From the IMG/VR virus record IMGVR_UViG_3300021400_003144: DNA of 64,000 nucleotides, one strand, 5' to 3'. The notes below the pieces were generated by a model. The model was not told where the DNA came from. It worked only from the letters and a program-made list of their open reading frames with translations, and did no database searches. The translations under genes were made by a program, and so were the position numbers. The stretch comes from a virus. Taxonomy: Duplodnaviria > Caudoviricetes. Below, in pieces: positions 8,262-64,000 of this stretch; within the stretch, counting starts at the first letter, position 1, and each line of letters starts with the position of its first letter.

Positions 8262-8284
8262 AAAGAAAGGTAAAGAGGCATAAT

Positions 8285-8857
8285 ATGAAAATAGTTTATT
8301 GTCATTTTTCATTTCGTAGACCAAAGGATAAGGGATATGGTATATTTGCTTGTGCTCTATACGCTGATAGTAATGGAAAGAGACTTGTAGCAAGGTCAGT
8401 AGTTGCTCAGAATTTATGGGTTGACCATCAGCATATAACAGCTATTCAGGCTTATGCTAATGCACTCAGTAAGATTTGTGATTGGCAGGATAAGCTAATT
8501 GATAAGGGAGTAACTAATGTGCTTCTTGTGACAGATAATAGCAATTTGGCTGGTTGGATAGCTAATCCTAAGAAGAATAAGGACTTCAGGGAGTATATGG
8601 CAAGAGCATATAAGCCATTTCATTCAGGAAATAAGGAGTTACGCATTGGAGTTGGAATGTGTGAACCTAGAAAGTTAGAGAAGTCATATAAGTTCTGTAA
8701 AGAGGAGCTTGTAGAGAATTGGAGTGAGTTTAATAATTCTAAGGTGAGTGATAATAAGACAAGACTTGAAGTGTCAGGGCTTATGTCAATAGCAGATTTG
8801 CTTAATAAAGATGCTCCTGATGGATTAGATAACTTTAAGCCTAAGAAACTAAGCTGA
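8285..8857 (+). CDS. RNase H-like fold protein
   Basis: GYGIFAC...AIQAYANAL...NVLLVTDNSNL pattern of the RNase HI family; first catalytic Asp not evident. Confidence 0.55.
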   Translation: MKIVYCHFSFRRPKDKGYGIFACALYADSNGKRLVARSVVAQNLWVDHQHITAIQAYANALSKICDWQDKLIDKGVTNVLLVTDNSNLAGWIANPKKNKDFREYMARAYKPFHSGNKELRIGVGMCEPRKLEKSYKFCKEELVENWSEFNNSKVSDNKTRLEVSGLMSIADLLNKDAPDGLDNFKPKKLS

Positions 8858-31961: not shown

Positions 31962-34295
31962 ATGTTTAATAGGGCTAAATTGAACAATCTGAATGACTAC
32001 TTTAATAAATTAAGTAGCAGAGAGAATAATGGTGTATACTTCTATAGAATAAATGGGTATTCAACTGACATAGATAAGTTTATAGTGGAATATTATAAGA
32101 CTGCTCTGAATAATGGAGTTATCCTTAGTAAAATACAGAATCCTGATGAAAAGAACTTAGAATACTATAATGAAGTTATGGGCAGTAACTTCATATTAGA
32201 CTTGAAATTTATAAAGGATAGTCTAAATAAGTGGCTACCTAGATTAAATAATAGTCAGGCTGATAGTGTAGCTGAAGCTATGTATAATGTTCTTGAAGAT
32301 TTAAAGAAGAACGGAAAGACAGATAGTATAATTAAGAACACATATATTAAGTTTATGTGCTGGTTATACTATAAGTTTGAAAGAATAGTAAATCAGTTAG
32401 GAAATGAAAATATACCTAAGATACTATATTTTGGCAGTAATATAAGTAGGCATGAATTATTGCTTTTGTCAGTATTAAATAAAGCAGGCTGTGATATAGT
32501 CCTAGTTCAAATGCAGGGTGACCTAGAGTATAGTAAGTTAGACAGTGACAATAGCATATCAGACAAGTTAGATATAGAGGGGTTGCAGGAATTTCCTGAT
32601 GGGTATTCATTAGATAAAATAAAGCATGACGTTCAGGCAGATGCTGAGACAGATAGACTATATTATAGCTTGTGTTTAAGCAATGGACGAGAAATGAATG
32701 GTACTTCTTGGAACAAAAAGATTATAAAGTGTAGCACTAATGATTGGATAGATGACAATAAGATTGATTTTGATAAAGCATTGAGTCTTATACAGACAAC
32801 TGGTAAGGTTAGACATGCTAATTTGAATGAGGATACATTCTATAACTGTTTCTTTAGAGTCATTGGTACTGAAGATAAGATGCTTTATGAGGAAAAACTA
32901 TTTAAGTTCCAGAGTGAGTTAAAAGCAAATAAACGTAATTTAGTCATTGTAAATAAAGAGATTGGCAAGCCAACTGTTGATGAAGTGTCTAAGGTGAACA
33001 GAACAAATTATAAAGATATCAATAGTTTAATAGCTGGGCTTGCAGGAAATATAAGGTATTTAGGAAATGATGATATACATAGGATTATGATTAAGTCATT
33101 TGTAGATACCATGATTGAGGCTGGTAAAATAGAAGATAACATAAATAGATTGACAAATAAGGCAGTATATTTGATTTGTTGGTTGAACAGATATAAAGAT
33201 AAGCTGTTTAAGGGTTGGATGTACGGAGATACAGCTTGTTTTGTTTATCTAGGTGGCTGTAAGGATTGCAGTGAGTCACTATTTATTAAATTTCTATCTA
33301 AGTTACCTGTGGATATACTTATTTTATGTCCTAGTCAATTACATAAGTGTGTTTTAAAGGATGATGCATTGTATGAGATAATTGGAACAGATTATTTAGA
33401 TATGGAGGTCTTTCCTGAGGAAAATACTAGCATCAGAACATTAGCTTATAATGCTGAAAGAGAGTTGGATACACTGTTATATACAGATTCTGGTATTTAC
33501 AGAGATAAGCAGTTCAGAAAAATAAATACAATTAATCTTAAAACTATGTATGAGGAAATTGCTACTCTTTGGAAAAACTGCTTGCAGTATAGAACAGGAT
33601 TTAATGTGACAGGTGATACAGCTAATTTACCTGTTATATTTGCTAAGGTATCTGGTGTAAAAAATGGAGATATAGATAGGTATTGGTTTGAGATAAGCAG
33701 GCTGATTACACCTGATACATTACTTATAACAAGTGCTCCTTACATAAAGACAAATACATTTTGTTGGAACAATAGCGTTGAGTGTTATAAGCGTGGAAAG
33801 CTTGATAGAGACAGAATAAAATCTAACTATGCATATGCATATAACATACTTAGAGATGATATTCAGAACTTGATTTTAGATAAGCTACAGCTTATGTTAG
33901 ATAAATCTCTAATAAAAGGTATGGGTCAGAATGGAACAGAATATTTAGTAATTGCTGAAATTTTAAGTCTTCCAAAAGAAGTAGTAAGGCTTATACAGAA
34001 GTTTGATTTTACAAAGGTAAATCCTAAGGTTATATATGTGCATACAGGTGATGGCATAGTGTCTATAGAAGATGCAATAATGTTAACTTTCTTGAATTTA
34101 ATTGGGTTTGATATAATTTTGTTTACACCTACTGGATATAACATGCTTGGAACATATATTAATGACTGTAATATAGTAGAATATCAAATTGGTGATTATT
34201 TTTATGACTTGCAAGTTCCAGATTTGCATAATTATAATTTATCTTCACCATTGCAACAAATAAAGAAGTTTTTTATTAAGAGAGGGATTAAATAA
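31962..34295 (+). CDS. YceG-like Ter-operon protein
   Basis: YIKFMCWLYYKFER, TLAYNAEREL, KTMYEEI, FDFTKVNPK, GFDIILFTPTGY; position before telA and terD. Confidence 0.8.
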   Translation: MFNRAKLNNLNDYFNKLSSRENNGVYFYRINGYSTDIDKFIVEYYKTALNNGVILSKIQNPDEKNLEYYNEVMGSNFILDLKFIKDSLNKWLPRLNNSQADSVAEAMYNVLEDLKKNGKTDSIIKNTYIKFMCWLYYKFERIVNQLGNENIPKILYFGSNISRHELLLLSVLNKAGCDIVLVQMQGDLEYSKLDSDNSISDKLDIEGLQEFPDGYSLDKIKHDVQADAETDRLYYSLCLSNGREMNGTSWNKKIIKCSTNDWIDDNKIDFDKALSLIQTTGKVRHANLNEDTFYNCFFRVIGTEDKMLYEEKLFKFQSELKANKRNLVIVNKEIGKPTVDEVSKVNRTNYKDINSLIAGLAGNIRYLGNDDIHRIMIKSFVDTMIEAGKIEDNINRLTNKAVYLICWLNRYKDKLFKGWMYGDTACFVYLGGCKDCSESLFIKFLSKLPVDILILCPSQLHKCVLKDDALYEIIGTDYLDMEVFPEENTSIRTLAYNAERELDTLLYTDSGIYRDKQFRKINTINLKTMYEEIATLWKNCLQYRTGFNVTGDTANLPVIFAKVSGVKNGDIDRYWFEISRLITPDTLLITSAPYIKTNTFCWNNSVECYKRGKLDRDRIKSNYAYAYNILRDDIQNLILDKLQLMLDKSLIKGMGQNGTEYLVIAEILSLPKEVVRLIQKFDFTKVNPKVIYVHTGDGIVSIEDAIMLTFLNLIGFDIILFTPTGYNMLGTYINDCNIVEYQIGDYFYDLQVPDLHNYNLSSPLQQIKKFFIKRGIK

Positions 34296-35440
34296 TGGGT
34301 ATTAAGTTTAAATCAGAAGAAAAGGCAGAAACACCAGTAGCAACTGCTCCTGTAGCAGAGGTAAAAGATGAGATTACTGAGGTAGAACAGTATGACATTG
34401 TAGCAGATAGAGAGAAGATGAATGCAGAGCTTGCAAACTCTGAGGAAGTTGATGCTCTCGTAAGTACCATTGAGGTTGATAATCTTGAGAGTATTGTAAA
34501 CTTTGGAGCTGATGTAGCTAGTGAAATTTCAAAGGCTTCAGATGTTGTGCTTAATAGTATGGATATGACTCAGCTTGACGGTACAGGTGAGCTTATGAAG
34601 GCTCTTGCTGACATCATGGAGAAGTTTGATGTTAAGGAAGTTGAAAATGAGCCTAACTTACTTCAAAAGCTTTTTACAAATATGGAAAAGCAGATTGAGA
34701 AGATTATGCATAAGTACAATACAATGGGTAATGAGATTGACAGAATATATGTTCAGCTTAAGCAGTATGAGAGTGAGATTAAGCAGTCAAATAAAAATCT
34801 TGCACTTATGTTTGATACTAATGTAAATTACTATCATGACCTTGTTAAGTACATTCTTGCAGGTGAGCAGGCATGTAAGGAAATTAAAGATTATCTTGAG
34901 CAGAAGCAGAAGGAGTTTGATAAGACTGGAGATACATCACTTCAGTTTGAGATTAATAATCTGAATCAGGCTCTTAGCATGATGGAGCAGAGAACTTATG
35001 ACCTCAGAACAGCTGAGAATGTAGCAATGCAGTCTATTCCTATGATTAAGACAATGGAGTTTAGTAACTATAATCTTGTAAGAAAGATTAATTCTGCATT
35101 TATAATTACACTGCCAGTATTTAAGCAGGCATTAGCTCAGGCTATTTTACTTAAGAGGCAGAAGATACAGGCTGAGTCATTGAGTGCTCTTGATAAGAAA
35201 ACTAATGAGATGCTTGTTAAGAATGCTCAGAACAATATGGAAGTAACTAAGCAGGCAGCTAGACTTGCATCTGGTAGCACAATTAAGATTGATACTCTTG
35301 AAAAGACATGGCAGACAATCACTAGTGGTATTGCTGAGACAAAGCAGATTGAGGAAGAGGCTCGTAATCAGAGAAATAGTGATAAAGTTAGACTTGAAGC
35401 ACTCAAGAATGAATTTATGGCTACTTATAATAAAAAGTGA
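34295..35440 (+). CDS. telA: toxic anion resistance protein (TelA/YceH family)
   Basis: Coiled coil; IVNFGAD, NLVRKINSAFIITLPVFK, TNEMLVKNA. Confidence 0.88.
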   Translation: MGIKFKSEEKAETPVATAPVAEVKDEITEVEQYDIVADREKMNAELANSEEVDALVSTIEVDNLESIVNFGADVASEISKASDVVLNSMDMTQLDGTGELMKALADIMEKFDVKEVENEPNLLQKLFTNMEKQIEKIMHKYNTMGNEIDRIYVQLKQYESEIKQSNKNLALMFDTNVNYYHDLVKYILAGEQACKEIKDYLEQKQKEFDKTGDTSLQFEINNLNQALSMMEQRTYDLRTAENVAMQSIPMIKTMEFSNYNLVRKINSAFIITLPVFKQALAQAILLKRQKIQAESLSALDKKTNEMLVKNAQNNMEVTKQAARLASGSTIKIDTLEKTWQTITSGIAETKQIEEEARNQRNSDKVRLEALKNEFMATYNKK

Positions 35441-35534
35441 GTAGGATTTACATGCTCAATTTAGTAGATTGGGCATGTAAATATTATAAGGTATAATTAA
35501 AATTTTAAATAAATGTTTATTTTGGAGGTATATT

Positions 35535-36116
35535 ATGTCAGTAAAGTTGTCAAAAGGACAGAAGGTTAGCCTTTCTAAGGAAAATCCTAATCTGTATAAA
35601 ATCACTGTAGGTCTTGGTTGGGATGTAAATGAATATGATTCAGGCTATAACTTTGACCTTGACGCTGCAGCTTTTCTTTTAGGTAGCAGAGGAACATGTC
35701 CTACTGAAGATGATTTTGTTTTCTATAATAATCTTAAGCATAAGAGTGGTTCTGTAGAGCACCTTGGTGATAATCTTACAGGTGCAGGAGAGGGTGATGA
35801 TGAGCAGATTAAAGTTGACCTTTCAGCAGTTCCTGATGAAATTGAGAGGATTGCATTTACAGTAACAATTTTTGATGCAACAAAGAGAAATCAGAACTTT
35901 GGTCAGGTATCAAATGCCTATATTCATATCATTGATGATGTTACTGGAAATGAGATTATCAGATATGATTTGGGAGAGGACTTCAGTATTGAGACAGCTG
36001 TAGTTGTAGGAGAGCTTTACAGAAATAATGGAGAATGGAAGTTCAATGCTATAGGCAGTGGTTTCCAGGGTGGTCTTGCAGCATTGTGTGCTCATTTTGG
36101 TATTGATGCTGAGTAA
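35535..36116 (+). CDS. terD: TerD-family stress protein
   Basis: [42 protein letters not shown]. Confidence 0.92.
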
Positions 36117-36136
36117 AATATAGGAGGTAGTTTTAA

Positions 36137-36718
36137 ATGGGTATTTGTTTAACTAAAGGGCAGAAGGTAAGTCTTACAAAGGATAATCCAGGTCTTAAGA
36201 ATGTTATAGTAGGGCTTGGCTGGGATGCAAATGTGTTTGATACAGGTGATGCTTTTGACCTTGATGCATCAGTATTTCTTCTTGGTGAAGATGGTAAGGT
36301 TACAAGTACAGATGATTTTGTATTTTATGGAAATAAGGTACATAAGTCTGGTTCAGTAGAGCATCTTGGAGATAACAGAACTGGTGATGGTGAAGGTGAT
36401 GATGAACAGATTAAGGTAGACCTTTCTAAGGTTCCTGAGAACATTAAGAAGATTGTTTTCACTGTTACAATCTATGATTATGAGACTAGAAAGCAGAACT
36501 TCGGACAGGTTGAAAATGCTTATGTAAGAATCATTGATGAAAATACAGGAACAGAGCTTGTAAGATATGACCTTTGTGAAGATTTTAGCATTGAGTCAGC
36601 TGTAGTATTTGGTGAGTTGTATAGAAACAATGGTGAGTGGAAGTTTAATGCTATTGGTTCTGGATATCAGGGTGGACTTGCAGCTCTTTGTAACAACTAC
36701 AACGTAGATGTTGATTAA
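36137..36718 (+). CDS. terD: TerD-family stress protein
   Basis: Same motifs; [15 protein letters not shown]. Confidence 0.92.
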
Positions 36719-36791
36719 ATGAAAAGTATAAAAATGGATTGTTCACAAATAAATGTGAGCAGTCCATTTAAAATTAAATAGGAGATTCAAT

Positions 36792-37421
36792 ATGAGTGTA
36801 AGTTTAAAGAAGGGTGAAAGAATTAGTCTCAGTAAGGAAAGTAAAGGACTTTCAAATATTACAGTAGGTCTTGGATGGCATGAGAATGATGCAAAGGGTG
36901 GAAATGGAGGATTCTTTGGTAAGCTTTTTGGTAGTTCATCAAGTTCAGGAAGCTCTTATGACTTTGACTGTGATGCTTCAGCATTGTTACTTGAGGATGG
37001 AAAGTTTGTAAATACAAGGGATTTGGTCTATTTCGGAAATTTGAGACATATATCTGGAGCAGTAAATCATTCCGGTGATAATCTTACTGGTGGCGGTGAT
37101 AGTGCTAATGACAGTGAACAGATTAAGATTGAACTTGATAAGGTTCCTAATCAGTTTGATAAGATTGTCATTGTAGCTAATATCTATCAGGCTAAATCAA
37201 GGAAACAGCATTTCGGAATGATAAAGAATGCTTTTATCAGAATTGTTGATGAAAAGACAGGAACTGAGATGTGCAGATATGACCTTACAGATGATTATTC
37301 TGGTAAGACAACAATCATCTTTGGTGAGATTTACAGAGATGCAGGCGAATGGAAGTTCAATGCTATTGGTAATGGCACTACAGATGGTAATTTAACTGAG
37401 ATTACAAATAGGTTTAGATAA
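36792..37421 (+). CDS. TerD-family stress protein (YceC/TerZ-like)
   Basis: GLGW...GGFFGKLFG insertion, [20 protein letters not shown]. Confidence 0.88.
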   Translation: MSVSLKKGERISLSKESKGLSNITVGLGWHENDAKGGNGGFFGKLFGSSSSSGSSYDFDCDASALLLEDGKFVNTRDLVYFGNLRHISGAVNHSGDNLTGGGDSANDSEQIKIELDKVPNQFDKIVIVANIYQAKSRKQHFGMIKNAFIRIVDEKTGTEMCRYDLTDDYSGKTTIIFGEIYRDAGEWKFNAIGNGTTDGNLTEITNRFR

Positions 37422-37434
37422 GCATACAGATATA

Positions 37435-40083
37435 ATGGAGAATATGGATAAGATGGAGAAGTTGGATAAAGACATTCTGATTAGAGGACTGACAGATGCT
37501 GAAGTAGAAGAGAGCAAGTCAAAGTTCGGTGTGAATGAGTTAGCTAAGAAAGAGACAGAGTCATTATGGCAGATGTTCTTAGGAGCATTTGATGATATCT
37601 GGATTAAAGTACTTTGTGGTGCTTTGATTTTAAAGATTGTTCTTGCAGTAGTAGGTATGTACATTCCTGAAATGTCAGGTGGAAGTGATGCTATTGAGAT
37701 TATCAGTATTGTAATGGCGATTGCATTGGCAACTGGATTTAGTACATTATCTGAGTATAGAAATACTTCAAGGAGTGAGGCTCTGCAGGAAGAGTACAAT
37801 AAGACATATGCCAAGGTAATGAGAAACGGAAAGCTTGTAAATATTCTTACAAGCGAAATTGTTAAGGGTGATGTAATTCTTGTACAGGCAGGTGATAAGG
37901 TTCCAGTTGATGGTTTAATGTTTGATGGAACTGTAAAGGTATCACAGGCAGCTCTTAATGGTGAGTCAAGAGATGAAACTAAGACAGCTACTGATAGTAT
38001 GGAAGAGGCAGAGTCAACAGATTATTCATCTAAGAGTAAAATCTTTATGGGTTCTGTAGTAACATCTGGTGAGGGTTACATGGTAGCTACAGTAATTGGA
38101 GATGCATCAGAACTTGGTAAGATTAACAAAGCTCTTACAGATAATACTGAAGAGGAAAGAAAAGATACAAGTAGTTTAAAGCTTGAGGTTGTAGCAGCTG
38201 GCATTGGTAAACTTGGTGTATCTGCGGCTGTAATAGCTGGTGTACTTCATGTAGGTCTTACACTAATGAGGGCTAATGAAGAGGCTTCACTAGTAACAAT
38301 TCTACTTCTTGTAGCTGAAGCTGTAATGCTTATGGCAAGTATAGTAATCATGGCTGTACCTGAGGGTCTTCCAATGATGAATAGCTTGGTTCAGAGTATG
38401 AATACAGAGAGCATGTATAAGAAAAATATTCTTGTAAGTCATAAGGCAGCATTCTCTGATTCAGCTTATATGAACGTATTGTTTAGTGATAAGACAGGAA
38501 CAATTACTCAGGGTAATCTTTCACTTGTTGAATTTATTACAGGTGATGGTGAAATTGTACCAAGTATTACAGATAGAGAGTTTATTGAAGCCATTACATT
38601 AAATAACCTGGCTAAGATTTCATCAGAGGGTAAGGCTATTGGTTCAAATAACATGGACAGAGCTCTTCTGACATATGCAATTAATAATGGTTATAATGAC
38701 AGCAAGAATGACCCTTCTAAGGTTGAAGAGATTAGTGGTTTTGACTCAGAAAAGAAGTGTGCTACAGTTAAACTTAAGAACGGAGTCATCTATTGGAAGG
38801 GTGCTACAGAGAATATCATTGATAAGGTTACTCATTATGTAGTATCTGACAGTGAGATAAAAGAGTTAACTGCTGAAGATAAGGAAAAGATTAAAGAAGT
38901 AATGCTTGCTCAGGCAAAGAGAACAATGAAACTTCTTAGTGTAGCTAAGATTGATGGTGATAAGACAATTTTATTTGCAATTCTTTGTTTGAGAGATAAC
39001 GTAAGAACAGATGCTGTTGAAACAGTACAGATTCTTAATAAGGCTGGTATTCAGGTAGTAATGGTAACTGGTGATGCAGAGGAAACAGCAGTAGCTATTG
39101 CAAAGGAAGCTGGTATTTATAATGAAGAGCATGGTGATGTAGTTCTTACTCATGAAAAGCTTGAGGGTATGACAGATGATGAACTTAAGGAAGTTCTTCC
39201 TAAGCTTAGAGTAGTAAGTAGAGCTAAGCCTCTTGATAAGAGGAGACTTGTAACATTGTCACAGCAGACAGATAATGTTTGTGGTATGACAGGTGATGGT
39301 GTAAATGATGCTCCTGCATTAAAGCAAGCAGATATTGGTTTTGCAATGGGTGATGGAACAGCAGTAGCTCAGGAAGCAGGAGATGTAGTTATTCTGAATA
39401 ACAGTCTAACATCTATTAAGGACTGTGTTCTTAATAGTAGAACAATGGCTAAGAGTGTTGGAAAGTTCCTTATTTTCCAGTTGACAGTTAATATCAGTAC
39501 ATTGCTGATTAACATAATTGCTCCAATTCTTGGTTGGACAGAGCCATTCAGTATTGTTCAGATTCTTTGGATTAATCTTATTATGGATACGCTCGCAGCT
39601 ATGGCGTTTGGTGGTGAGCCTATTCTTGATAGATATATGAATGAGAAGCCTGTAAAGAGAACTGATAATATTCTTACAAAGTATATTAAATCAGCTATTG
39701 GATTAAGTGCTGTATTCATTACATTTGGTAGTGTTCTAATTCTTGAGAATGTAGCAGGTGTTACAAGTTATGTAACTCCAGAAGGATGTTCTGACCCAGA
39801 GTTATATAAGAAAACATTTATGTTTGCATTCTTCATTTATAGTATAATCTTCAATAGTTTAAATACAAGGTCTGAAACGATTAATGTATTTGAACATATT
39901 AATGAGAATAAGAGATTCATCTCAGTTATGAGTAGCATCTTTATTCTTCAGACAATTATCATTGAAATAGGTGGTAAGGTATTTAGCACAACCACACTAG
40001 ATATTAAAGCTTTACTTGTTTCAATGGCATTAGCATTCTGCATCATTCCTGTGGATATGGTACGAAAGCTAATTACAAAGTAA
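37435..40083 (+). CDS. calcium-translocating P-type ATPase (type II)
   Basis: LNGES, AVPEGLP, FSDKTGTIT, KGATE, MVTGD, TGDGVNDAPALK, FQLTVN, LWINLIMDTLAA. Confidence 0.93.
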   Translation: MENMDKMEKLDKDILIRGLTDAEVEESKSKFGVNELAKKETESLWQMFLGAFDDIWIKVLCGALILKIVLAVVGMYIPEMSGGSDAIEIISIVMAIALATGFSTLSEYRNTSRSEALQEEYNKTYAKVMRNGKLVNILTSEIVKGDVILVQAGDKVPVDGLMFDGTVKVSQAALNGESRDETKTATDSMEEAESTDYSSKSKIFMGSVVTSGEGYMVATVIGDASELGKINKALTDNTEEERKDTSSLKLEVVAAGIGKLGVSAAVIAGVLHVGLTLMRANEEASLVTILLLVAEAVMLMASIVIMAVPEGLPMMNSLVQSMNTESMYKKNILVSHKAAFSDSAYMNVLFSDKTGTITQGNLSLVEFITGDGEIVPSITDREFIEAITLNNLAKISSEGKAIGSNNMDRALLTYAINNGYNDSKNDPSKVEEISGFDSEKKCATVKLKNGVIYWKGATENIIDKVTHYVVSDSEIKELTAEDKEKIKEVMLAQAKRTMKLLSVAKIDGDKTILFAILCLRDNVRTDAVETVQILNKAGIQVVMVTGDAEETAVAIAKEAGIYNEEHGDVVLTHEKLEGMTDDELKEVLPKLRVVSRAKPLDKRRLVTLSQQTDNVCGMTGDGVNDAPALKQADIGFAMGDGTAVAQEAGDVVILNNSLTSIKDCVLNSRTMAKSVGKFLIFQLTVNISTLLINIIAPILGWTEPFSIVQILWINLIMDTLAAMAFGGEPILDRYMNEKPVKRTDNILTKYIKSAIGLSAVFITFGSVLILENVAGVTSYVTPEGCSDPELYKKTFMFAFFIYSIIFNSLNTRSETINVFEHINENKRFISVMSSIFILQTIIIEIGGKVFSTTTLDIKALLVSMALAFCIIPVDMVRKLITK

Positions 40084-48748: not shown

Positions 48749-49579
48749 ATGAGCTATGAAGTAAAAAATTTTGCACAGGCAGCAGCAGGATTCACCACTG
48801 ACAACGACGACATCAAGATCACAGAGCATGGAGGACCGTTCAGTGTAATCGAGTACGCAAGGGATCTTTCGGTAGGACCGTATACTGCCGAGACTATGTT
48901 CTTTGCATCTAAGATGGGAGTGCATAAGAGACAGGTGGTTTGTGACCTTTCAAAGGGTTCTGTCACTGTACAGGCAGGTGCAATGCAGTGGATGCTTGGA
49001 AATGTAAATGCTTCATCTGGTATTAAGGGTGCAGGTGACCTTATTGGAAAGATGTTTAATGCTAAGGTTACTGGCGAGACAGCTGTTAAACCTGAATATA
49101 ATGGAACTGGTACACTGGTATTAGAGCCTACATACAGACACTTGTTAATACTGAACACAAGAGAGTTTGGTGGAGCTATGGTACTTGATGATGGAATGTT
49201 TCTTGCATGTCAGTCAAATTTAAAATTGCAGACAGTGATGAGGTCAAACTTATCAAGTGCAGTTGCTGGTGGAGAAGGTTTGTTTAACCTTTGTTTAGTA
49301 GGGGATGGATTTGCAGTATGCGAGTCTAATGTACCTAGAGAGGAACTTATAGAAATTGAACTAAATAATGATGAGCTTAAGGTTGATGGAAACTTTGCAG
49401 TAGCTTGGTCACATACACTTCAATTTACAGTTGAGAAGTCAACTAAGAGTATTATAGGTTCAATAGCTAGTGGAGAAGGCTTAGTAAATGTTTACAGAGG
49501 AACTGGAAAAGTTCTTTTAGCTCCTGTAGGTGGGCAGGCAACAAGTTATGCTAGCAATAAAGGTACAATTCATAACTAA
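48749..49579 (+). CDS. AIM24 (DUF124) family protein
   Basis: QAGAMQW, TGETAVKPEY, GGEGLFN, VDGNFAVAW, SGEGLVNVYRGTG. Confidence 0.88.
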   Translation: MSYEVKNFAQAAAGFTTDNDDIKITEHGGPFSVIEYARDLSVGPYTAETMFFASKMGVHKRQVVCDLSKGSVTVQAGAMQWMLGNVNASSGIKGAGDLIGKMFNAKVTGETAVKPEYNGTGTLVLEPTYRHLLILNTREFGGAMVLDDGMFLACQSNLKLQTVMRSNLSSAVAGGEGLFNLCLVGDGFAVCESNVPREELIEIELNNDELKVDGNFAVAWSHTLQFTVEKSTKSIIGSIASGEGLVNVYRGTGKVLLAPVGGQATSYASNKGTIHN

Positions 49580-49612
49580 AAATTTTTAAGTTTAAAGGAG
49601 AGTAAGCAGCTA

Positions 49613-50767
49613 ATGGGAAGAGCAGGAGGCGGTAGTTCAGGTGGTGGACACTCATTTGGAGGTGGACATTCATTTGGTGGAAGCAGAGCAGGCGGACACA
49701 CATTTGGAGGAAGCAGTAGAGCAGGGTCTGGAAGTCATAGGTCAACATCAAGTAGCTTTAGTGGATTTAGCAGTTCATCAAGTAGTCATCATAGCAATGA
49801 TAGTTTATTAGGTGAGGTTGCTAGAGGGGCTGCTAGAGAAGTTGGCAGGCAGATGATTAGAAACAGTACAAGTTCAAGACACTATAACAATTATGGTTCT
49901 GGCTATGGTTATGGCGGAATGGGTGGAATGTCTTTTGGAGGCTCTGGTTATGAAACAACATCCAGAAGAGATGAAGGTGGACTTGTTGGAGCAATAGTAA
50001 ATCTTATTGTATTTGTAATTATAGCAGTTGTAGCATTTGGTATTTTTAGTAGAGCTAATGGTTCTGATATAAAAAGTACAATTCAGAGAGAAAAGCTAAC
50101 TGGAACAAGCTATAATGCTAATAGCGTTGTTGTTGGAGATGAGCTTGGATATATTGATTCAACATCAGAGCTTGGTAAGGAACTTAAAGAGTTTTATACT
50201 GATACAGGTGTTCAGCCTTATATCTATATTAAGGGTTATGACCCAAGCTTAACTAGTAACACTGATAAAACAAATTGGGCACAGCAGTTCTATGATAGTC
50301 AGATAAATGATACAAATGGATTTATGTTTATCTATTTTGGTTCAGCTGATGATGTAAATAATAGTATACCAGACTCTCAGAAGGATATAGGGTACATGTC
50401 ATATGTAGTTGGTGGTGCAGCTGGTTCAGTTATGGACGAAGAAGCTTGTGAGATATTCTGGAGTTATGTTGATAGATACTGGACATCAGATATGTCAACT
50501 GAGGATATGTTTGGTACAGTCTTTAGTAAAACAGCTAATTCTATTATGAAAGTTGATAAGACTGATAAGCAAACAGGAATGACAATGGTAATAGTTCTTG
50601 CAGGCTTAGGTATTGGAATTGTAGCAGTAGTATTAATTACTAAGAAGTTTAAGAGAGATAAAGAAAAGGCTGCTGAGACAGAGAGAATACTTAATTCAAA
50701 TATTGATACACTTTCAAATGAAGCTAACAGTGCTTCAAATGATGATACAGTTAACAAATACCTATAG
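49613..50767 (+). CDS. membrane protein with Gly/Ser-rich N-terminus and TPM-like extracellular domain
   Basis: GGHSFG repeats, TM, DELGYI...FYTDTGVQPYI...VMDEEA, TM. Confidence 0.7.
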   Translation: MGRAGGGSSGGGHSFGGGHSFGGSRAGGHTFGGSSRAGSGSHRSTSSSFSGFSSSSSSHHSNDSLLGEVARGAAREVGRQMIRNSTSSRHYNNYGSGYGYGGMGGMSFGGSGYETTSRRDEGGLVGAIVNLIVFVIIAVVAFGIFSRANGSDIKSTIQREKLTGTSYNANSVVVGDELGYIDSTSELGKELKEFYTDTGVQPYIYIKGYDPSLTSNTDKTNWAQQFYDSQINDTNGFMFIYFGSADDVNNSIPDSQKDIGYMSYVVGGAAGSVMDEEACEIFWSYVDRYWTSDMSTEDMFGTVFSKTANSIMKVDKTDKQTGMTMVIVLAGLGIGIVAVVLITKKFKRDKEKAAETERILNSNIDTLSNEANSASNDDTVNKYL

Positions 50768-50828
50768 TAGCTAATAAATAGTATAGGTATATAAATAAAA
50801 TTTTTAAAGATTAAGGAGAGTAACAATT

Positions 50829-51503
50829 ATGTCAATTTTATCACGTTTTTCATCAATTATGGCTTCAAACATTAATGCAGTTCTTGACAAGATGGAGGAT
50901 CCATCTAAGATGATTGACCAGAATCTTAGAGAGCTGAGAGAGAATCTTGCAGAAGTTAAGAAAGAGACAGCTGGTGTTATGGCTGATGAGAAGCAGGCGT
51001 CTAGAAAGCTTCAGGAGTGCAAGGATAACATTGCAACTTGTGAGAAGGCAGCTAAGAACGCATTGGTAGCTGGAAATGAGAATGATGCTCGTAAGATTAT
51101 TGAGAAGAAGGCTACATATGAAGCTAATCTTGACGGTTTACAGAAAACATATGATGCAGCTAAGGCTAATGCAGATAAGATGAGACAGATGCATGACAAG
51201 CTTGCTAATGATATTGCATCACTTGAAGCAAGAAAGGATTCTATCAAGGGCAAGATTGCAGTAGCTAAGGCTCAGGATAGAGTAAACAAGATGACATCTG
51301 GTGCAAGTAAGGCTAATGCATCTATTGAGTCTTTCAATAAGTGGGAGGCTAAGGCTGACAAGATGCTTGACCAGGCAAATGCTGAGGCTGAGCTTGAGGC
51401 TGGACTTCATGCAGATGATGATTTAGTTGGAAAGTATGCTACATCATCTAGTGCAGATACAGAGTCTGAGCTTGAGAGAATGAAGAAAGAGCTTGGTCTG
51501 TAA
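50829..51503 (+). CDS. pspA: PspA/IM30 family protein
   Basis: MSILSRFSSIMASNINAVLDKMEDPSKMIDQ; coiled coil; ELERMKKEL. Confidence 0.9.
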   Translation: MSILSRFSSIMASNINAVLDKMEDPSKMIDQNLRELRENLAEVKKETAGVMADEKQASRKLQECKDNIATCEKAAKNALVAGNENDARKIIEKKATYEANLDGLQKTYDAAKANADKMRQMHDKLANDIASLEARKDSIKGKIAVAKAQDRVNKMTSGASKANASIESFNKWEAKADKMLDQANAEAELEAGLHADDDLVGKYATSSSADTESELERMKKELGL

Positions 51504-59037: not shown

Positions 59038-60255
59038 ATGGCTTTTATAGATTATGAAGATATGGCAAAGAGAAATGCAGAATCACTTAGAGTATCAAGG
59101 GCTGATGAAGTATTTACTGTAACTGCTATTGATACTAAGAATCATATAGTTCAGTTAAATGGTAGCATTAATGTTGATGTAGTGTATACACTGTTAAGGG
59201 CAATAGCAAGAAAAGACTGTGCAGTCAAAAACTTTGATGTATTAAAGAAAGAAATTGATGTAATAGGGAATGAAGGTAATAAGTTTATAGTTGATACAGC
59301 TGTAAAGAATTTATTAAGAATGTCTAACTACATAATTGATAAATTTAATCTTGAGCAGAATATCAAAGAGGTTGAGAGCAAGGGCACTGATTGGGTCATT
59401 GATACTAATTATGGTATATACTTTCAGGGTTTAGGTACATCTATATATAAAAATGAATGTCCTGGTTTCAAGGGGTTATTAAACAATGCAGAAATCAAGG
59501 ATAGACTAGATAGGGTTAAAAAAGTAAATCTTATATGTCTGACAGCATTTGATGGTACATTATGGTTAAGTTGTGACATTGAGTCAAATTATTATACTAT
59601 TAACTTTGATAATTGGGATACTGCTAATAATAAGGATTTAATGGACTTTAATGAAAAAACAGGACTGAGGTTTTTCAAAGAGAAATATGTATCCACATAT
59701 GCTAATGTATGCGGATACATAAGAGAAAAAGCTGAACTTCATGCATATAGAGTTAAACTTGGCAGTGAAGATAAATTTATGACTGATATTATTAAAACGG
59801 CTGTAGAAAATATGATTAGAATTGCAAATTTTGTACACTCTAATTCTAACCTCGATGCAGCATATGCTAAGTATGAAGGTGAAAAACATATAGATTCATA
59901 TATTATGTTTTGTCCTGAACATAGCTCAAATCATATAGCACTTGCAACTAAAGAAGATTTTCCTAAGTTCAGAGAATGTATTAATATGCCAGAACTTAAT
60001 GAGAGAATAAATGAAGTTAGGTCTATTACATACAGTCTATTAAAAATAGGAGGTTTAGATTTATACATCACATATGATGTAGAAAATGATAGATATAAGG
60101 TAGGAAGCATTGTAGCTGAAGAGAAGCTTGGAAGTTTCAAAGAAGAATCAGGATTAAAGTGGTACATTTGGGAGAACATTGAGGGTAACTATCACACAGT
60201 ATGCGAGAAGCTTAGACTATGTGCTTCTAACTATCAGAAGCCTAAGTCAAAATAA
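59038..60255 (+). CDS. hypothetical protein with a tandem duplication of about 160 aa
   Basis: KFIVDTAVKNLLRMSN...FNEKTGLRF vs KFMTDIIKTAVENMIRIAN...FKEESGLKW. Confidence 0.8.
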   Translation: MAFIDYEDMAKRNAESLRVSRADEVFTVTAIDTKNHIVQLNGSINVDVVYTLLRAIARKDCAVKNFDVLKKEIDVIGNEGNKFIVDTAVKNLLRMSNYIIDKFNLEQNIKEVESKGTDWVIDTNYGIYFQGLGTSIYKNECPGFKGLLNNAEIKDRLDRVKKVNLICLTAFDGTLWLSCDIESNYYTINFDNWDTANNKDLMDFNEKTGLRFFKEKYVSTYANVCGYIREKAELHAYRVKLGSEDKFMTDIIKTAVENMIRIANFVHSNSNLDAAYAKYEGEKHIDSYIMFCPEHSSNHIALATKEDFPKFRECINMPELNERINEVRSITYSLLKIGGLDLYITYDVENDRYKVGSIVAEEKLGSFKEESGLKWYIWENIEGNYHTVCEKLRLCASNYQKPKSK

Positions 60256-60269
60256 TAAATTAAGTATAG

Positions 60270-60362
60270 AGGCACCTAGAATTTATTTAAGTTCTAGGTG
60301 TTTTTATTTTGTGTAAAAATAAAATATTTAGTATTGAAATTTAAGTAAATATGTGTTATAAT
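60270..60362 (+). promoter_or_regulatory. terminator plus extended -10 sigmaA promoter module heading the array-containing unit
   Basis: GGCACCTAGAA/TTCTAGGTGTT plus T-tract; AGTA-TTGAAA(60334)-17-TATAAT(60357) with TG. Confidence 0.8.
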
Positions 60363-60396: not shown

Positions 60397-60705
60397 ATGA
60401 GCATAAAAGAAAAGATATACAATCTAGGGGAATTAAGTGAGGATGGAAAAGTTATTAGTATTCCTGTGAGTAGACTAGATGAGATTAATAAGAGGCAGAC
60501 AGAGCGTGAGATAGGCATGTGGGTATATAACAAGGATACTGATAGAACAGAGTGTAACTGTTGTCATGGTAGAGTAGGAAAGTTTACATCACAAGATATG
60601 GATGGTGTAACCACTAAAATTCTAAAAACTATGTATTGTCCTCATTGTGGAGCATTAATGTTAAATGGTGTAGGCAAAGAGATTTATGAGGAAAGTGGAT
60701 GGTAA
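60397..60705 (+). CDS. zinc-ribbon protein
   Basis: GMW...ECNCCHG...YCPHCGALM. Confidence 0.75.
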   Translation: MSIKEKIYNLGELSEDGKVISIPVSRLDEINKRQTEREIGMWVYNKDTDRTECNCCHGRVGKFTSQDMDGVTTKILKTMYCPHCGALMLNGVGKEIYEESGW

Positions 60706-60812: not shown

Positions 60813-61091
60813 ATGAATATGAAATTTGAGCATAAGAAAACTGATGAAAGGCATATTGAAGAATTTGATGAGTCAGTGATGGAAAATTGGGATAGGCATT
60901 TAGAGAAAAATAAGGGTGAAGAAAAACCTGAAGATTTGGAAGATAAATGTAGCAATAAAGATGAAAATAGGCATGGAAAAGCTAGGATACTGATAAGAGG
61001 AGATGGTGGAATGTCTCATAGAGCTTTGATTGAAGCTATAGTAAATAAAGAGATACAAGTAGTTATTTCAGATGATGTAAATAACAGGTAA
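60813..61091 (+). CDS. hydrophilic hypothetical protein
   Basis: 92-aa ORF with weak RBS. Confidence 0.5.
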   Translation: MNMKFEHKKTDERHIEEFDESVMENWDRHLEKNKGEEKPEDLEDKCSNKDENRHGKARILIRGDGGMSHRALIEAIVNKEIQVVISDDVNNR

Positions 61092-61165: not shown

Positions 61166-62095
61166 AAGTGGACCCTTGTAATAGGGATTGAATTTATTTC
61201 TGTGAGTAACCACATCCTCATAAAATTGAAGAACCCTGCAATAGGGATTGAATAATTTCTGTTACTCTCATATTTAGCATCCAATTAAGTGAACCCTTTG
61301 ATAGGGATTAAATCTTATTTTACACTAGTTCAACCACATGATGATTAAAGAACCCTTCTAATAGGGATTGAGCTTGGTACATTTTGTTATCTTCCTTTAA
61401 ATAAATGAGATGAACCCTTGCAATAGGGATTGAGTAGTCTTATTTAGAAGAGTAGAATGCTGATATTTTGAGTGAACCCTTATAATAGGGATTGAGTTAA
61501 TTGAAAATTAACATTAATATTCATATTCATGATAGTGAACCCTTTAATAGGGATTGATTACCTATACACAATGTCGTAGGCTTGAATGAAGTGAACCCTT
61601 TAATAGGGATTGCATAGGCGAAAAATGTAAAATCATCAAAGTTCTTATTGAACCCTTTAATAGGGATTGCATGGTCAATATTTGCGTTGTTAATTACTAC
61701 TAATAAAGTGAACCATTCTAATGGGGATTGAATAGTACATAATAATGTTTAAGGTTATGTCATATAACAGGAAACCCTTATAATAGGGATTGAATCAGAA
61801 GAGGTGGAAGGCCAACTTTGGACATTTCAAGTGAACCCTTATAATAGGGATTGCATCTATTTTCGTAGTTCCAAATTGCCTTTAATTTAAGAGAACCCTT
61901 GCAGTAGGGATTGCATTAATAGAGACAAAGCGCTCTGTCTATTTTTCTAAAGAACCCTTTAATAGGGATTGTATCATTTCTATCATGTTTTCGAGGTCTG
62001 AACGTTTTAGAGAACCCTTTAATAGGGATTGCATATGCTGATGATTTTTAAAATCACCAAGAGGAAAGTAAGAACCCTTGTAATAGGGATTGTAT
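61166..62095 (+). CRISPR. orphan CRISPR-like array: 16 heterogeneous repeats (about AAGTGAACCCTT(N)TAATAGGGATTG(A/C)AT) and 15 unique spacers
   Basis: AGGGATT cores at 61183, 61243, 61303, 61363, 61425, 61487, 61549, 61605, 61662, 61723 (GGGGATT), 61785, 61846, 61906, 61964, 62024 and 62085; period 56-62 nt; CCCT/AGGG hairpin followed by an ATTG tail; no cas gene recognised in the window. Confidence 0.8.
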
Positions 62096-62128: not shown

Positions 62129-62353
62129 ATGAGTAGACACTATACCGTTGAGGTTGAGAAGTTATGTAGAGTATCTGATGTTGAAGCAGATACTCCAAAA
62201 CAAGCCTTGAGAAATGTAATAAGAGAACATGGTATATGTAATGGTTCAATAAGAAGTATTAGTGCAGACACTAAGACTAACTATAGAAAAGCTAAAGTTA
62301 GTTTATTGGGTGGAACTAGAGAGTCTATTAGTTATTTTGAGGTTTCATGGTAG
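62129..62353 (+). CDS. small hypothetical protein
   Basis: GGGAGAGG RBS before ATG 62129; VEADTPKQA. Confidence 0.7.
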   Translation: MSRHYTVEVEKLCRVSDVEADTPKQALRNVIREHGICNGSIRSISADTKTNYRKAKVSLLGGTRESISYFEVSW

Positions 62354-62915: not shown

Positions 62916-62943
62916 AGTGAATAAACATTGGGGGGATATAAAA

Positions 62944-64000
62944 ATGGGCAAGGGTAAGAAAATTTTAGCAGTAGAAATACCTATTGGGTTAATGGCAGTT
63001 AGTATGATGCTTAATGCTTGTAATAATCAAGTTGTAGCTAATGAAAGTAAGAGTGAGACAATGAATATTGCGAAAGTGACAGATGTAAATGAAGCTTTGT
63101 TTAATCTTAGTAAAAATGTGATACAAAGCGAATTGTCAGATACATCAGATAATATAATGGTGTCACCTGTATCTATAGAAAGGTGCTTTGCTTTAGCTAT
63201 AGAGGGAGCAAATGGAGAGACAAGAGAACAGTTAGAAAAAGCAATATATTCTAACTTACCTTTTGAAGATACAGCATATAAGATAGGAACTATTTGTGAT
63301 AAGCTAAGTTACTATGATGTAGATGCATATGATGATAAGAATAATCATATAGATGAGACTAGAAAGGCATTTAAAGTTGCTAATTCTATATGGATAAACT
63401 CAGATGCAGATGATTTTAAGATTAAGACTGAATATAAGGATAGAATAGGCATCAATTATAAAGCTGAAGAGTTTGAGATACCTTTTTCAGATGGACCTAA
63501 TCCTATAAATAATTGGGTAAATACAAATACAGATGGAATGATACCCAGTATATTAAATGATTTAACACCTGATGATATGACTGTACTTGTAAATGCAACT
63601 ATGTTTAAGGGTGAATGGGTTGATAAGTTTGAGAATGATTCACCTGAGAAAAACTTTACAGACTCAGATGGAAGTATAAAGCAAGTTGACTTTATGAGAA
63701 GCTATAAGGATGATAGATATGTACAGATAAAGGATAGAGATGCATTTGTAAAGCAATATAATAACAAGTTTATGTATATTGGAATACTACCTAAAGAAAA
63801 TGAAAGCACTAATGAACTTCTTAAGGAACTAGAATATAAAGATATAATCAAAGGACTTGGAAATAATACCAATTATGATTTAGTTTTAGACTTTCCTAAA
63901 TATAAGTATGAAAGCTCAATGAGTTTAGTAAAAGTATTTAAGCAACTTGGTGTAGATTTAGCATTTGGAAATGAAGCTGATTTCTCTAATATGAGTGATA
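62944..64000 (+). CDS. serpin (serine protease inhibitor) lipoprotein, truncated by window end
   Basis: Hand translation: lipobox LNAC; NIMVSPVSI, GANGETREQL, VANSIW, INNWVNTNTDGMIPSIL, LVNATMFKGEW, ILP, FPKYKYES, LGVDLAFGNEADFSNM. Confidence 0.92.
   Translation, partial: MGKGKKILAVEIPIGLMAVSMMLNACNNQVVANESKSETMNIAKVTDVNEALFNLSKNVIQSELSDTSDNIMVSPVSIERCFALAIEGANGETREQLEKAIYSNLPFEDTAYKIGTICDKLSYYDVDAYDDKNNHIDETRKAFKVANSIWINSDADDFKIKTEYKDRIGINYKAEEFEIPFSDGPNPINNWVNTNTDGMIPSILNDLTPDDMTVLVNATMFKGEWVDKFENDSPEKNFTDSDGSIKQVDFMRSYKDDRYVQIKDRDAFVKQYNNKFMYIGILPKENESTNELLKELEYKDIIKGLGNNTNYDLVLDFPKYKYESSMSLVKVFKQLGVDLAFGNEADFSNMSD

Follow-up and report, generated by a model that had tools for sequence, protein, structure and literature searches.

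A CRISPR array of all-different repeats and a minimal type III-A-like cas operon on a 283-kb mobile element

Array 1, a run of hairpin repeats and spacers, lies in a transcription unit of small genes on scaffold_29 of ERZ28612966, which is 282,865 bp long and of which 97.5 kb were assembled and examined as the wider locus. The window, by which we mean the whole analysed stretch of 64 kb, belongs to this scaffold, and the features discussed here are collected in Table 1. The first-pass annotation had placed a strong promoter upstream of the array, and this was confirmed: the predicted promoter agrees with the consensus at 11 of 12 positions, carries a TG ahead of its -10 element and stands directly 3' of the terminator-like hairpin, and no terminator was found between it and array 1. 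The first small ORF of the unit contains two CxxC pairs, as read from the sequence, and matched no Pfam family; for the second, whose stop codon lies 75 nt before the array, no family was found. Behind the array, the next ORF was called from 62102, but on inspection a better Shine-Dalgarno sequence precedes the ATG at 62129. The flanking 405-aa protein (59038-60255) is not visibly linked to CRISPR; it has no Pfam family, phage tblastn match or IMG/VR relative, and every structure neighbour in the Atlas had a TM below 0.3. The gap between the genes flanking array 1 is 1011 nt and identical in an independent NCBI assembly, GCA_001684375.1, and array 1 is therefore not an assembly artefact.

Table 1. 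Positions of the features at and near array 1, in window numbering
Feature	Position	Strand	Description
Intrinsic-terminator-like hairpin	60266..60307	+	19-pair stem followed by a T run; closes the upstream operon
Predicted promoter of the array's transcription unit	60334..60362	+	Sigma-70/sigmaA type; TTGAAA, 17 nt, TATAAT
Small ORF, first gene of the unit	60397..60705	+	102 aa, zinc-ribbon-like; called on the scaffold
Small ORF, second gene of the unit	60813..61091	+	92 aa; called as a gene on the scaffold
CRISPR array 1	61168..62095	+	16 heterogeneous hairpin repeats and 15 spacers; hairpin kept, repeat shared with the flanks of the cas operon
Spacer 5	61436..61470	+	Sole spacer of array 1 with a protospacer found
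Repeat 10	61708..61733	+	Most deviant copy; both arms altered, hairpin weak and 2 nt off register
Next gene, same transcription unit as array 1	62129..62353	+	Ribosome-binding site within the 'spacer' behind the last repeat
cas10-csm2-csm3-csm4-cas6e operon	67350-71717 (window-equivalent)		Same scaffold, downstream of array 1

The counts of 16 repeats and 15 non-identical spacers given by the annotation were correct. The repeats are 25-26 nt long with a start-to-start spacing of 56-63 nt, and the spacers, all unique, measure 31-37 nt by this repeat definition. In each unit, two complementary 4-nt arms enclose a loop of 5-6 nt; a short flank precedes them on the 5' side, and a 7-nt tail starting with ATT follows. 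This supports the description of the array as CRISPR-like with the hairpin-plus-tail layout of Cas6-processed repeats. The array has the regular direct repeats and unique spacers of similar length that define CRISPR, but not the near-identical repeats, because all 16 repeat sequences are distinct (pairwise identity 85% on average, range 73-96%). The units measure 56-63 nt throughout, none being deleted or fused with another, and positions 4-8 of the handle vary among the units. With all repeats different and the handle variable, some units could no longer be loaded. Repeat 10 had been described as altered in both arms and still able to form a hairpin; the first part is right, but the best hairpin lies out of register, 2 nt farther upstream than usual, and is weak at -2.7 kcal/mol (z = +0.2). 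This copy may be a decayed unit. Taken individually, the hairpins were not significantly more stable than shuffled sequence, and no Rfam family matched anywhere in the window.

The core repeat motif has no further copy on either strand of the 64-kb window. In the wider locus it was matched 44 times, against 2.3 matches expected from shuffles, and the repeat family comprises about 45 copies, all on the + strand, which form at least nine blocks within 35 kb. Array 1 is the largest of these at least nine co-oriented arrays, and 30 kb downstream of it another array of this family is more uniform. At at least nine places, hairpin units stand 16-75 nt past the stop codons of ordinary genes. Outside the element, two exact repeat variants had no match in IMG/VR and a loosely defined repeat pattern found no more than isolated chance matches there; array 1 with its flanks gave just chance-level matches of 24-27 nt (E >= 1) in the phage collection and nothing in the plasmid collection.

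The array had been called Cas-less. In the window this holds, as no cas gene was found among 20 ORFs compared with Pfam (10 of them also with PHROGs) or by tblastn for cas1 and cas2. However, this absence results from where the window ends, and the array is not an orphan: the operon cas10-csm2-csm3-csm4-cas6e follows 5.3 kb downstream and is bracketed by the same repeat, with copies 16 nt behind the gene that precedes cas10 and 45 nt behind cas6e. Cognate cas genes thus share both the replicon and the repeat with the array. The annotation had reasoned that an adjacent complete cas operon with this repeat would make the array an ordinary, decayed one; the operon is adjacent and has the repeat, but it is not complete, since it contains neither cas1 nor cas2. 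Neither gene was detected by tblastn in the 97.5 kb examined of the scaffold or in the precomputed Pfam matches, so an adaptation module with its leader, as expected of CRISPR, was not found.

The Cas10/Csm1 protein has 625 aa. Its sequence-level support (HD domain in Pfam, 6e-8; TIGR02578, 4e-19; PADLOC Cas10, 5e-23) covers the N-terminal 250 residues only, but an AF2 model of the whole protein (pLDDT 88) had Csm1 chains as all of its best 50 PDB matches (E 3.6e-16, TM 0.64). Sequence and model together identify the protein as the large subunit of type III systems, for which an HD and two Palm domains are expected. The HD motif is present, whereas a GGDD-like cyclase motif is absent from the C-terminal half of all 38 members of the Cas10 family and is not among the conserved columns. 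There were no CARF, Csm6 or SAVED matches in the locus, and it therefore has neither a recognisable cyclase active site nor an accessory effector sensing cyclic oligoadenylate (cOA). Csm3 (TIGR02582, 1e-53; PDB 4qts, 1e-40) has its catalytic Asp in place and passes the NCBIfam cut-off with 182 against 90 bits, as does Csm2 (PF03750, 5e-11) with 31.7 against 30.6. Csm4 (TIGR01903, 2e-12; PADLOC, 2e-15) completes this type III backbone and falls short of its cut-off with 47 against 55 bits. CasE/Cas6e (PF08798, 7e-15; PADLOC, 1e-17) contains a glycine-rich loop and an N-terminal His. Because Cas10, Csm4 and CasE all score below the curated NCBIfam cut-offs, we regard them as divergent. Csm5 was not the best match of any of the five cas genes, so the subunit that caps the 3' end in type III-A was not found. 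A Pnkp-ligase fusion is encoded beside the locus. The clade of this Cas10 is rare: only 11 full-length cluster representatives were found among 1.84 billion, followed by a gap from E-106 to E-42 and then by ordinary Cas10s, and no relative occurred among the species representatives of the genome collection. A comparison of 10 window ORFs with PHROGs revealed no structural gene. The 283-kb mobile element is probably a jumbo phage, with a Firmicute of the rumen or gut as its host.

The same five-gene operon occurs in relatives on contigs of 112-430 kb, with Cas10 proteins 38-51% identical to the present one. One of them (L121) adds cas2 and another (L124) adds cas2 and cas1, each followed by an array with a period of about 60 nt; these adaptation genes are of the Cas2_CT1978 kind, which is associated with type I-E. 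The repeats of the relatives are as heterogeneous as those of array 1, including the relative with both adaptation genes. In that relative, the four repeats proximal to the cas genes are identical and the distal ones decay, a pattern that fits drift after the loss of adaptation in the present element. Across four elements, a 4-bp stem directly before AT(T/A) was present in 99 of 99 repeats. Its fourth pair switches between U-A and C-G by way of U-G, and its third changes from C-G to A-U or U-A in five copies. The G-U pairs are sensible only for RNA of the + strand, as the other strand would give C-A mismatches. The proposal that selection acts on RNA structure is therefore supported: G-U and compensatory changes preserve the stems, whereas loops and flanks drift.

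A protospacer was found for spacer 5, which is identical at 34 of 35 bases to positions 8382-8416 on the minus strand of a bacterial contig (L128) and is thus complementary to the mRNA of a + strand ORF at 8173-8553 of that contig. This ORF encodes a WHH-type nuclease-like protein of 126 aa and adjoins an island with a type I R-M system and a NACHT gene. The only named relative of the target protein is from Pseudobutyrivibrio ruminis; among the species representatives of the genome collection it has none. A spacer of L121 overlaps spacer 5 with an offset of 3 nt and has the same target, whose flanking bases match as well, and this shift points to an independent acquisition of the two spacers. 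Targets were thus found for one of the 15 spacers of array 1 and for one of about 36 in the element: the other 14 spacers of array 1 had no match in the phage, plasmid and IMG/VR collections, spacers 7, 11 and 14 and the spacer shared among relatives had none in IMG/VR, and no spacer matched elsewhere in the assembled 97.5 kb of the element. With spacer 5, the element has at least one guide against a gene on the chromosome of its presumed host, beside a defence island, which suggests counter-defence or host takeover.

We conclude that array 1 is genuine and belongs to a rare, adaptation-less variant of type III carried by a mobile element, and we consider it highly probable that it is a working-type CRISPR array of the minimal type III-A-like (Csm) system encoded on the same element, probably a jumbo phage. 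For its transcription, processing and action we propose the following scheme. The predicted promoter at 60334 would transcribe the array within its operon, and the CasE-type Cas6 of the element would recognise each 4-bp hairpin and cut at its 3' base, leaving the tail that starts with AUU as a 5' handle of about 8 nt on the following spacer. The guides would then load into a Cas10-Csm4-Csm3-Csm2 complex. Upon pairing with a complementary transcript, Csm3 would cut the RNA and the HD domain of Cas10 the DNA at the transcribed site, probably without a cOA signal because the cyclase motif is absent. Since cas1 and cas2 were not found, we suggest that no new repeat copies were made and the old ones drifted apart, so that only the stem and the first handle bases, which Cas6 and Csm4/Cas10 would need, were retained. 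Of the three roles that the annotation had offered, guiding an unrecognised phage effector comes closest, except that the effector is recognisable, if unusual, as a Csm complex.

Less conventionally, the system may be a fixed, inherited tool kit that has replaced an adaptive type III system, with the repeat as a general punctuation of RNA and with guides that silence or cut host genes. We regard this as unlikely, though not far-fetched. Because hairpin units follow the stop codons of ordinary genes, CasE would split the long transcripts of co-oriented genes into individual mRNAs, each upstream message would keep a hairpin capped by protein, and the release of guides would be timed with those operons. 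The guides would hit host genes, among them the WHH-type nuclease gene that borders the defence island. RNA-repair enzymes are encoded beside the locus in two unrelated members, the Pnkp-ligase fusion here and RtcB and Tpt1 in L124, and these might join the same RNA-processing economy.

It could also be argued that the array is a relic, which once served a type III system and is now decaying, still transcribed with its operon but yielding no functional guides. The differences among all 16 repeats, the weakened repeat 10, the variable handle, the failure to find cas1 and cas2 in 97.5 kb and the 14 spacers without a target would agree with this, and the more uniform array 30 kb downstream could be the active one. 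However, decay should hardly have left every stem intact in four elements, with compensatory and G-U changes, or have held the unit length without deletions or fusions. Csm3, the Cas10 HD domain and CasE also retain intact catalytic motifs, spacer 5 remains identical to its target at 34 of 35 bases, and all relatives are equally heterogeneous, including the one with cas1 and cas2. A relic is therefore improbable.

The other two roles in the annotation, guides that hijack host Cas proteins and a multi-unit RNA anti-CRISPR decoy, would both treat the array as an orphan. Phages are known to carry repeat units that imitate host repeats and so poison Cas complexes (PMC11656645), and degenerate repeats in short arrays resemble such mimics. 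But a cognate Cas6 and effector are encoded on the element itself, bracketed by the repeat, and with its own Csm complex neither hijack nor decoy is necessary; no support was found for either. The pairing of genes and repeat is kept in the relatives, and the conserved spacer length and the real protospacer are things that a decoy does not need. We consider both roles very unlikely. An array of binding sites for a protein on DNA, such as iterons, a partition site or operators, would explain short palindromes spaced regularly in a non-coding stretch, and yet it can be practically dismissed. The G-U pattern is strand-specific, all copies follow gene orientation with loops free to vary, and the linkage to cas genes is tight in four elements; moreover, the 'spacers' are not conserved among relatives and one of them matches foreign DNA.

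Compared with the type III-A (Csm) systems of Staphylococcus epidermidis, Streptococcus thermophilus and Lactococcus lactis, the present system shares Cas10/Csm1 with an HD domain, Csm2, the Asp of Csm3 and Csm4, and its Cas10 model superposes on Csm1 structures. Repeats with a hairpin and a handle of about 8 nt and spacers of about 35 nt are also common to both. However, Cas10 is about 130 residues shorter here and has no GGDD in any of the 38 family members, the locus is without Csm5, Csm6 or a CARF gene, and the processing enzyme is CasE/Cas6e-like, with type I-E-associated Cas2_CT1978 as the adaptation genes of relatives. The repeats here, at just 25-26 nt, are all different, and the arrays are scattered over 35 kb.

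[quoted passage not shown] As a CRISPR system borne by a lytic phage, with a guide against a defence-linked locus of the host chromosome, it resembles the present one, which differs in its single spacer match and its predicted RNA-targeting type III effector. The ICP1 system is mentioned in PMC11656645. The RNA anti-CRISPRs and solitary repeat units of that paper likewise consist of hairpin units on mobile elements, some of them alone or paired after genes, but they mimic the host repeat and act without cognate cas genes, whereas the present element has cognate cas genes and its units carry spacers of regular length.

Huge phages with CRISPR-Cas (Al-Shayeb et al. 2020, PMC7162821) share with the present element a size above 200 kb, several compact arrays and the absence of nearby genes for spacer acquisition, and their spacers can likewise target host genes or competitors. 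The main text of that paper makes no mention of type III, nor does it describe this operon layout, all-different repeats or nine dispersed arrays. [quoted passage not shown] 2025, PMC12669027) share a dead Cas10 cyclase, the loss of CARF effectors, an active-looking HD domain and the lack of an adaptation module, and the repeats of type VII arrays 'often contain multiple substitutions', which was read as rare spacer uptake. These systems are archaeal or bacterial, unlike the present one on a mobile element. III-G and III-H lack the catalytic Asp of Cas7 and type VII uses another nuclease (PMC12669027), whereas Csm3 here keeps its Asp. A separate Csm2, a Cas6 of the CasE kind and the retention of cas1 and cas2 in close relatives also set the present system apart; the term 'Cas6e' is absent from the text of PMC12669027.

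If our interpretation is correct, an array can keep a working form though every repeat differs, and a CasE-type nuclease and a Csm complex would require only a 4-bp stem and the first handle bases. Finders based on repeat identity would miss such arrays, and CRISPR systems of mobile elements may therefore be under-counted; statements that no cas gene is present likewise need checking past the edge of the window. The system would be a rare, compact type III variant of very large mobile elements, with five genes, among them that of a 625-aa Cas10 of the HD-only kind, and might offer a small RNA-guided complex targeting RNA and DNA. Interference is of type III here but processing resembles type I-E, as does adaptation in relatives, a combination that could reflect a natural shuffling of modules. 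Guides held independently by two elements against the same nuclease-like gene would suggest RNA-guided counter-defence by giant phages, and the target would be an uncharacterised host gene that may restrict them.

Some further observations concern the spacers as a set. A partial match of 16-18 nt between spacers of L124 and ribosome-binding-site regions was judged to be generic anti-Shine-Dalgarno similarity. The purine fraction of the spacers in arrays 1-4 was 0.49, compared to 0.59 on the element's own + strand, which makes them neither clearly sense nor antisense. Spacer content varies between the related elements, as expected of CRISPR: only one spacer, spacer 5, was shared among the 98 compared, and another relative (L129) differs from L121 by the insertion or deletion of a unit.

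Array 1 is a genuine array of a rare, mobile-element-borne type III CRISPR variant. The first-pass annotation had regarded it as Cas-less, and this description had to be given up when the sequence was extended. A 405-aa protein flanking the array is also encoded on a 282,865-bp scaffold of an ENA metagenome, and by walking this scaffold we obtained a continuous 97.5-kb sequence that does not differ from the window in the shared part. It contains a cas10-csm2-csm3-csm4-cas6e operon 5.3 kb 3' of the array and 3.3 kb past the window end (see the table). The AlphaFold2 model of the Cas10-like protein (pLDDT 88, pTM 0.89) had only Csm1/Cas10 chains among its 50 best PDB matches (E 3.6e-16, TM 0.64). 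Across 38 sequences of this Cas10 family the HD motif was invariant, and none had a GGDD-type motif in the C-terminal half. Csm5, Csm6, a CARF gene, cas1 and cas2 were not found in the 97.5 kb of the element.

The array itself was as first described, a series of heterogeneous hairpin repeats, and the gap between its flanking genes was 1011 nt in an independent NCBI assembly as in the window. Its units, spaced at 56-63 nt, open with a short 5' flank, have two complementary 4-nt arms on either side of a loop of 5-6 nt, and close with a tail starting with ATT; with the repeat taken as 25-26 nt, the 15 spacers measure 31-37 nt. All 16 repeats are distinct (mean pairwise identity 85%, range 73-96%). 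In repeat 10 both arms are altered, and RNAfold placed a hairpin of only -2.7 kcal/mol 2 nt upstream of the normal register. The predicted promoter is followed in the same + direction by two small ORFs, the array and more genes, and no terminator was found between them. The motif had no other copy on either strand of the 64-kb window and 44 matches in the extended locus, against 2.3 expected by chance. Along 35 kb the element carries a total of about 45 copies, grouped in nine blocks and without exception on the + strand; the blocks that were checked, the first four, start 16-75 nt past a stop codon. Repeats are most uniform in the block 30 kb downstream, from which the family consensus was taken. 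Units 3 and 4 of array 3 have the repeat and the first ~10 spacer bases in common, and unit 3 has one broken stem pair and a 27-nt spacer, which suggests that a unit was duplicated and then decayed.

Features of the element, its relatives and the spacer target (window numbering, continued past the window end; L120 and L127, stretches of the same scaffold; L121, locus of a relative; L128, L131 and L132, bacterial contigs)
Feature	Position	Details
HNH homing-endonuclease-like protein	12682-14964	760 aa; upstream of DNA polymerase
Family A DNA polymerase	15084-18749	1221 aa
YceG-domain protein, TelA, P-type cation ATPase	31962-40083	777, 381 and 882 aa
AIM24 protein, PspA/CorA-like protein	near 48749-51503
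Terminator	60266-60307	precedes promoter of array 1
Near-consensus promoter (predicted)	60334-60362	11/12 positions, TG-extended
Array 1	61168-62095, + strand	16 hairpin units
Serpin-family protein (PF00079)	62917-64000, continuing to 64221	425 aa; two genes 3' of array 1
Five-gene cas operon	67350-71717
Cas10/Csm1		625 aa; HD motif; TIGR02578 4e-19; PADLOC Cas10 5e-23
Csm2		160 aa; PF03750 5e-11
Csm3		212 aa; TIGR02582 1e-53; PDB 4qts 1e-40; catalytic Asp present
Csm4		233 aa; TIGR01903 2e-12; PADLOC 2e-15
CasE/Cas6e-like		208 aa; PF08798 7e-15; PADLOC Cas6e 1e-17; glycine-rich loop aligns with E. coli CasE; N-terminal His
Repeat block, six units		ends just upstream of cas10
Repeat block, seven units		starts 45 nt 3' of cas6e
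Repeat block, three units		after gene next downstream
Further repeat blocks		2, 6, 2, 2 and 1 units
Array 3, units 3 and 4	71886-71990 (L120 12646-12760)
RNA-ligase fusion gene	73194-75431 (L120 13958-16195)	745 aa; directly 3' of array 4
Two Eco57I-type genes	80421-85484 (L127 4148-6445, 7868-9211)
HTH protein and GGDEF-domain protein	L121 2021-3349	GGDEF protein 367 aa
Target family members	L128 8173-8553; L131 6001-6381; L132 6001-6381	126 aa each

Selection on RNA structure rather than on sequence, as proposed earlier, was supported by the repeats of four elements. A 4-bp stem ending immediately 5' of AT(T/A) is possible in 99/99 of them, while there is free variation in the loops, the 5' flanks and positions 4-8 of the handle. 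The innermost pair is U-A or C-G, with U-G as an intermediate, and in the relative L124 the third pair has changed from C-G in five copies, to A-U in four and to U-A in one. Read on the opposite strand, the numerous U-G pairs become C-A mismatches, and the functional molecule should therefore be the + strand RNA and not duplex DNA. The individual hairpins are only marginally stable (z-scores -0.7 to -2.8), so that the argument rests on conservation and not on folding energy. CasE of type I-E systems binds the repeat hairpin and produces an 8-nt handle by cutting at the 3' base of the hairpin; the stem conservation fits an enzyme of this type, for which hairpin recognition and the cut site would be similar.

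The Cas10-like protein belongs to a small clade, with 11 full-length matches among 1.84 billion cluster representatives, on contigs up to 430 kb. Its boundary is sharp: E-values fall from 1e-106 to 1e-42, and ordinary Cas10s of 700-900 aa match over the N-terminal third only. All three loci fetched for comparison share the five-gene operon, followed in each by an array of ~60-nt period with heterogeneous repeats. L121 (51% identity, same sample series) also has cas2, L124 (38% identity, 396-kb contig) has cas2 and cas1, and L123 has neither; the Cas2 of L124 matches the Cas2_CT1978 model, which is associated with type I-E. L124 has four identical repeats nearest the cas genes and decayed ones farther away, the pattern expected if new units continue to be inserted at one end and the older ones diverge.

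The spacers are all unique within the element and had no match in its own 97.5 kb. Among 98 spacers compared in four elements, one was common to two of them: spacer 5 of array 1 and its L121 counterpart are shifted against each other by 3 nt at either end. Scanning JGI metagenomes with the core common to both returned two near-identical bacterial contigs, L128 and L130, which match spacer 5 at 34/35 bases and the L121 spacer at 32/35, and which include the extra 5' bases of the latter as well as the extra 3' bases of the former. The simplest reading of these sequences is that the two elements independently took overlapping pieces of one target, and this would mean that the spacers are real and acquired and that the target matters. 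The third match of the scan, another copy of an L121-like array, has one unit more than L121 as well as point changes, and illustrates how such arrays evolve. Type III systems need a guide complementary to the target RNA. Spacer 5 reads as the minus strand of L128, and its guide would therefore pair with the mRNA of an ORF on the + strand, the orientation required. Under the tag/anti-tag rule, a flank that does not pair with the handle is read as non-self; the bases flanking the protospacer in L128 are unpaired with the handle, and the target would be treated accordingly.

L128 is a bacterial chromosome (G+C 43.5% versus 32% in the element) in which a defence island lies beside housekeeping genes, in the order HsdR, Pua-like protein, HsdS, HsdM, NACHT/STAND NTPase, target ORF, RlmCD-type methyltransferase, PcrA and PfkB kinase. 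In two more genomes the ORF again has the methyltransferase on one side and, on the other, a variable type I R-M island that may or may not include NACHT. The protein matched no Pfam or PADLOC model. Its family has an invariant WHH-type motif followed by a conserved Asn and His, and two relatives contain the C-terminal end of a HINT domain, one with a PT-HINT match; it thus resembles the nuclease tips of polymorphic toxins. The family may be an undescribed defence or toxin gene. The hosts may be rumen Lachnospiraceae, to judge from one relative annotated from Pseudobutyrivibrio ruminis. A role in counter-defence or host takeover, based on a single spacer, is plausible.

From the observed genes, motifs, shared repeat, stem conservation and one target, we infer the biochemical steps as follows. 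Transcription from the promoter would run across the two small genes and array 1, a CasE-like nuclease would cleave 3' of every hairpin, and guides with a handle of ~8 nt would be bound by Csm4 and Cas10 and coated by Csm3 and Csm2. A complementary transcript would then trigger RNA cleavage by Csm3 and HD-dependent DNA cleavage, without cOA signalling. Loss of cas1 and cas2 would have frozen the spacer set and let the repeats diverge, selected only for processing and loading. It is also conceivable, if unlikely, that array 1 is a relic, given the heterogeneity of its repeats and the scarcity of spacer targets, but a decaying array would hardly retain its stems perfectly, together with a regular unit length and intact catalytic motifs. 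The cognate cas genes, the G-U pattern and the protospacer make it very improbable that the array hijacks host Cas complexes or serves as an RNA decoy, and the same three observations leave almost no room for a set of DNA binding sites.

Huge phages with CRISPR systems lacking adaptation genes and with compact arrays are known (PMC7162821; PMC11656645; PMC13037316), and our element is like them in both respects. It also resembles III-G, III-H and type VII, adaptation-less systems for which a cyclase-dead Cas10 and substitution-rich repeats are known (PMC12669027). We did not find a published description of its combination of features, although the family may have been listed earlier among virus-encoded systems. 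The Cas10, of 625 aa, is HD-only and is accompanied by an active-looking Csm3 and a separate Csm2; the processing enzyme is of the CasE type, and relatives have adaptation genes of the type I-E kind; the repeats, at 25-26 nt, are all different; and the arrays are scattered behind ordinary genes.

The element is likely a phage, as its DNA polymerase is closest to enzymes of large Bacillus phages and it has a homing endonuclease, an endolysin-type choline-binding domain, RNA-repair genes and uniform gene orientation; no structural gene was found among the 10 window ORFs tested against PHROGs. Its lineage has no close sequenced relative in the collections searched. The polymerase reached 23-34% identity at most across 50,697 phage records. 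The gene for the polynucleotide kinase/metallophosphatase/T4 Rnl1-type RNA ligase fusion has its own promoter-like sequence, and in L124 a different RNA-repair set (RtcB ligase, Tpt1/PTS_2-RNA, metallophosphatase) immediately precedes cas10. RNA-repair genes adjoin the type III locus in both of these distant members, perhaps not by chance. In L121, the closest relative, the HTH and GGDEF-domain proteins are encoded just upstream of the cyclase-dead cas10; this separate nucleotide cyclase may be a signalling part that replaces the lost one, or a neighbour with no link to it. The serpin is unusual cargo for a phage-like element, and the YceG, TelA, ATPase, AIM24 and PspA/CorA-like genes form membrane-stress and ion-transport cargo. 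The two Eco57I-type methyltransferase/restriction-like genes and an acetyltransferase gene lie among the dispersed mini-arrays, with a two-repeat block between the Eco57I-type genes.
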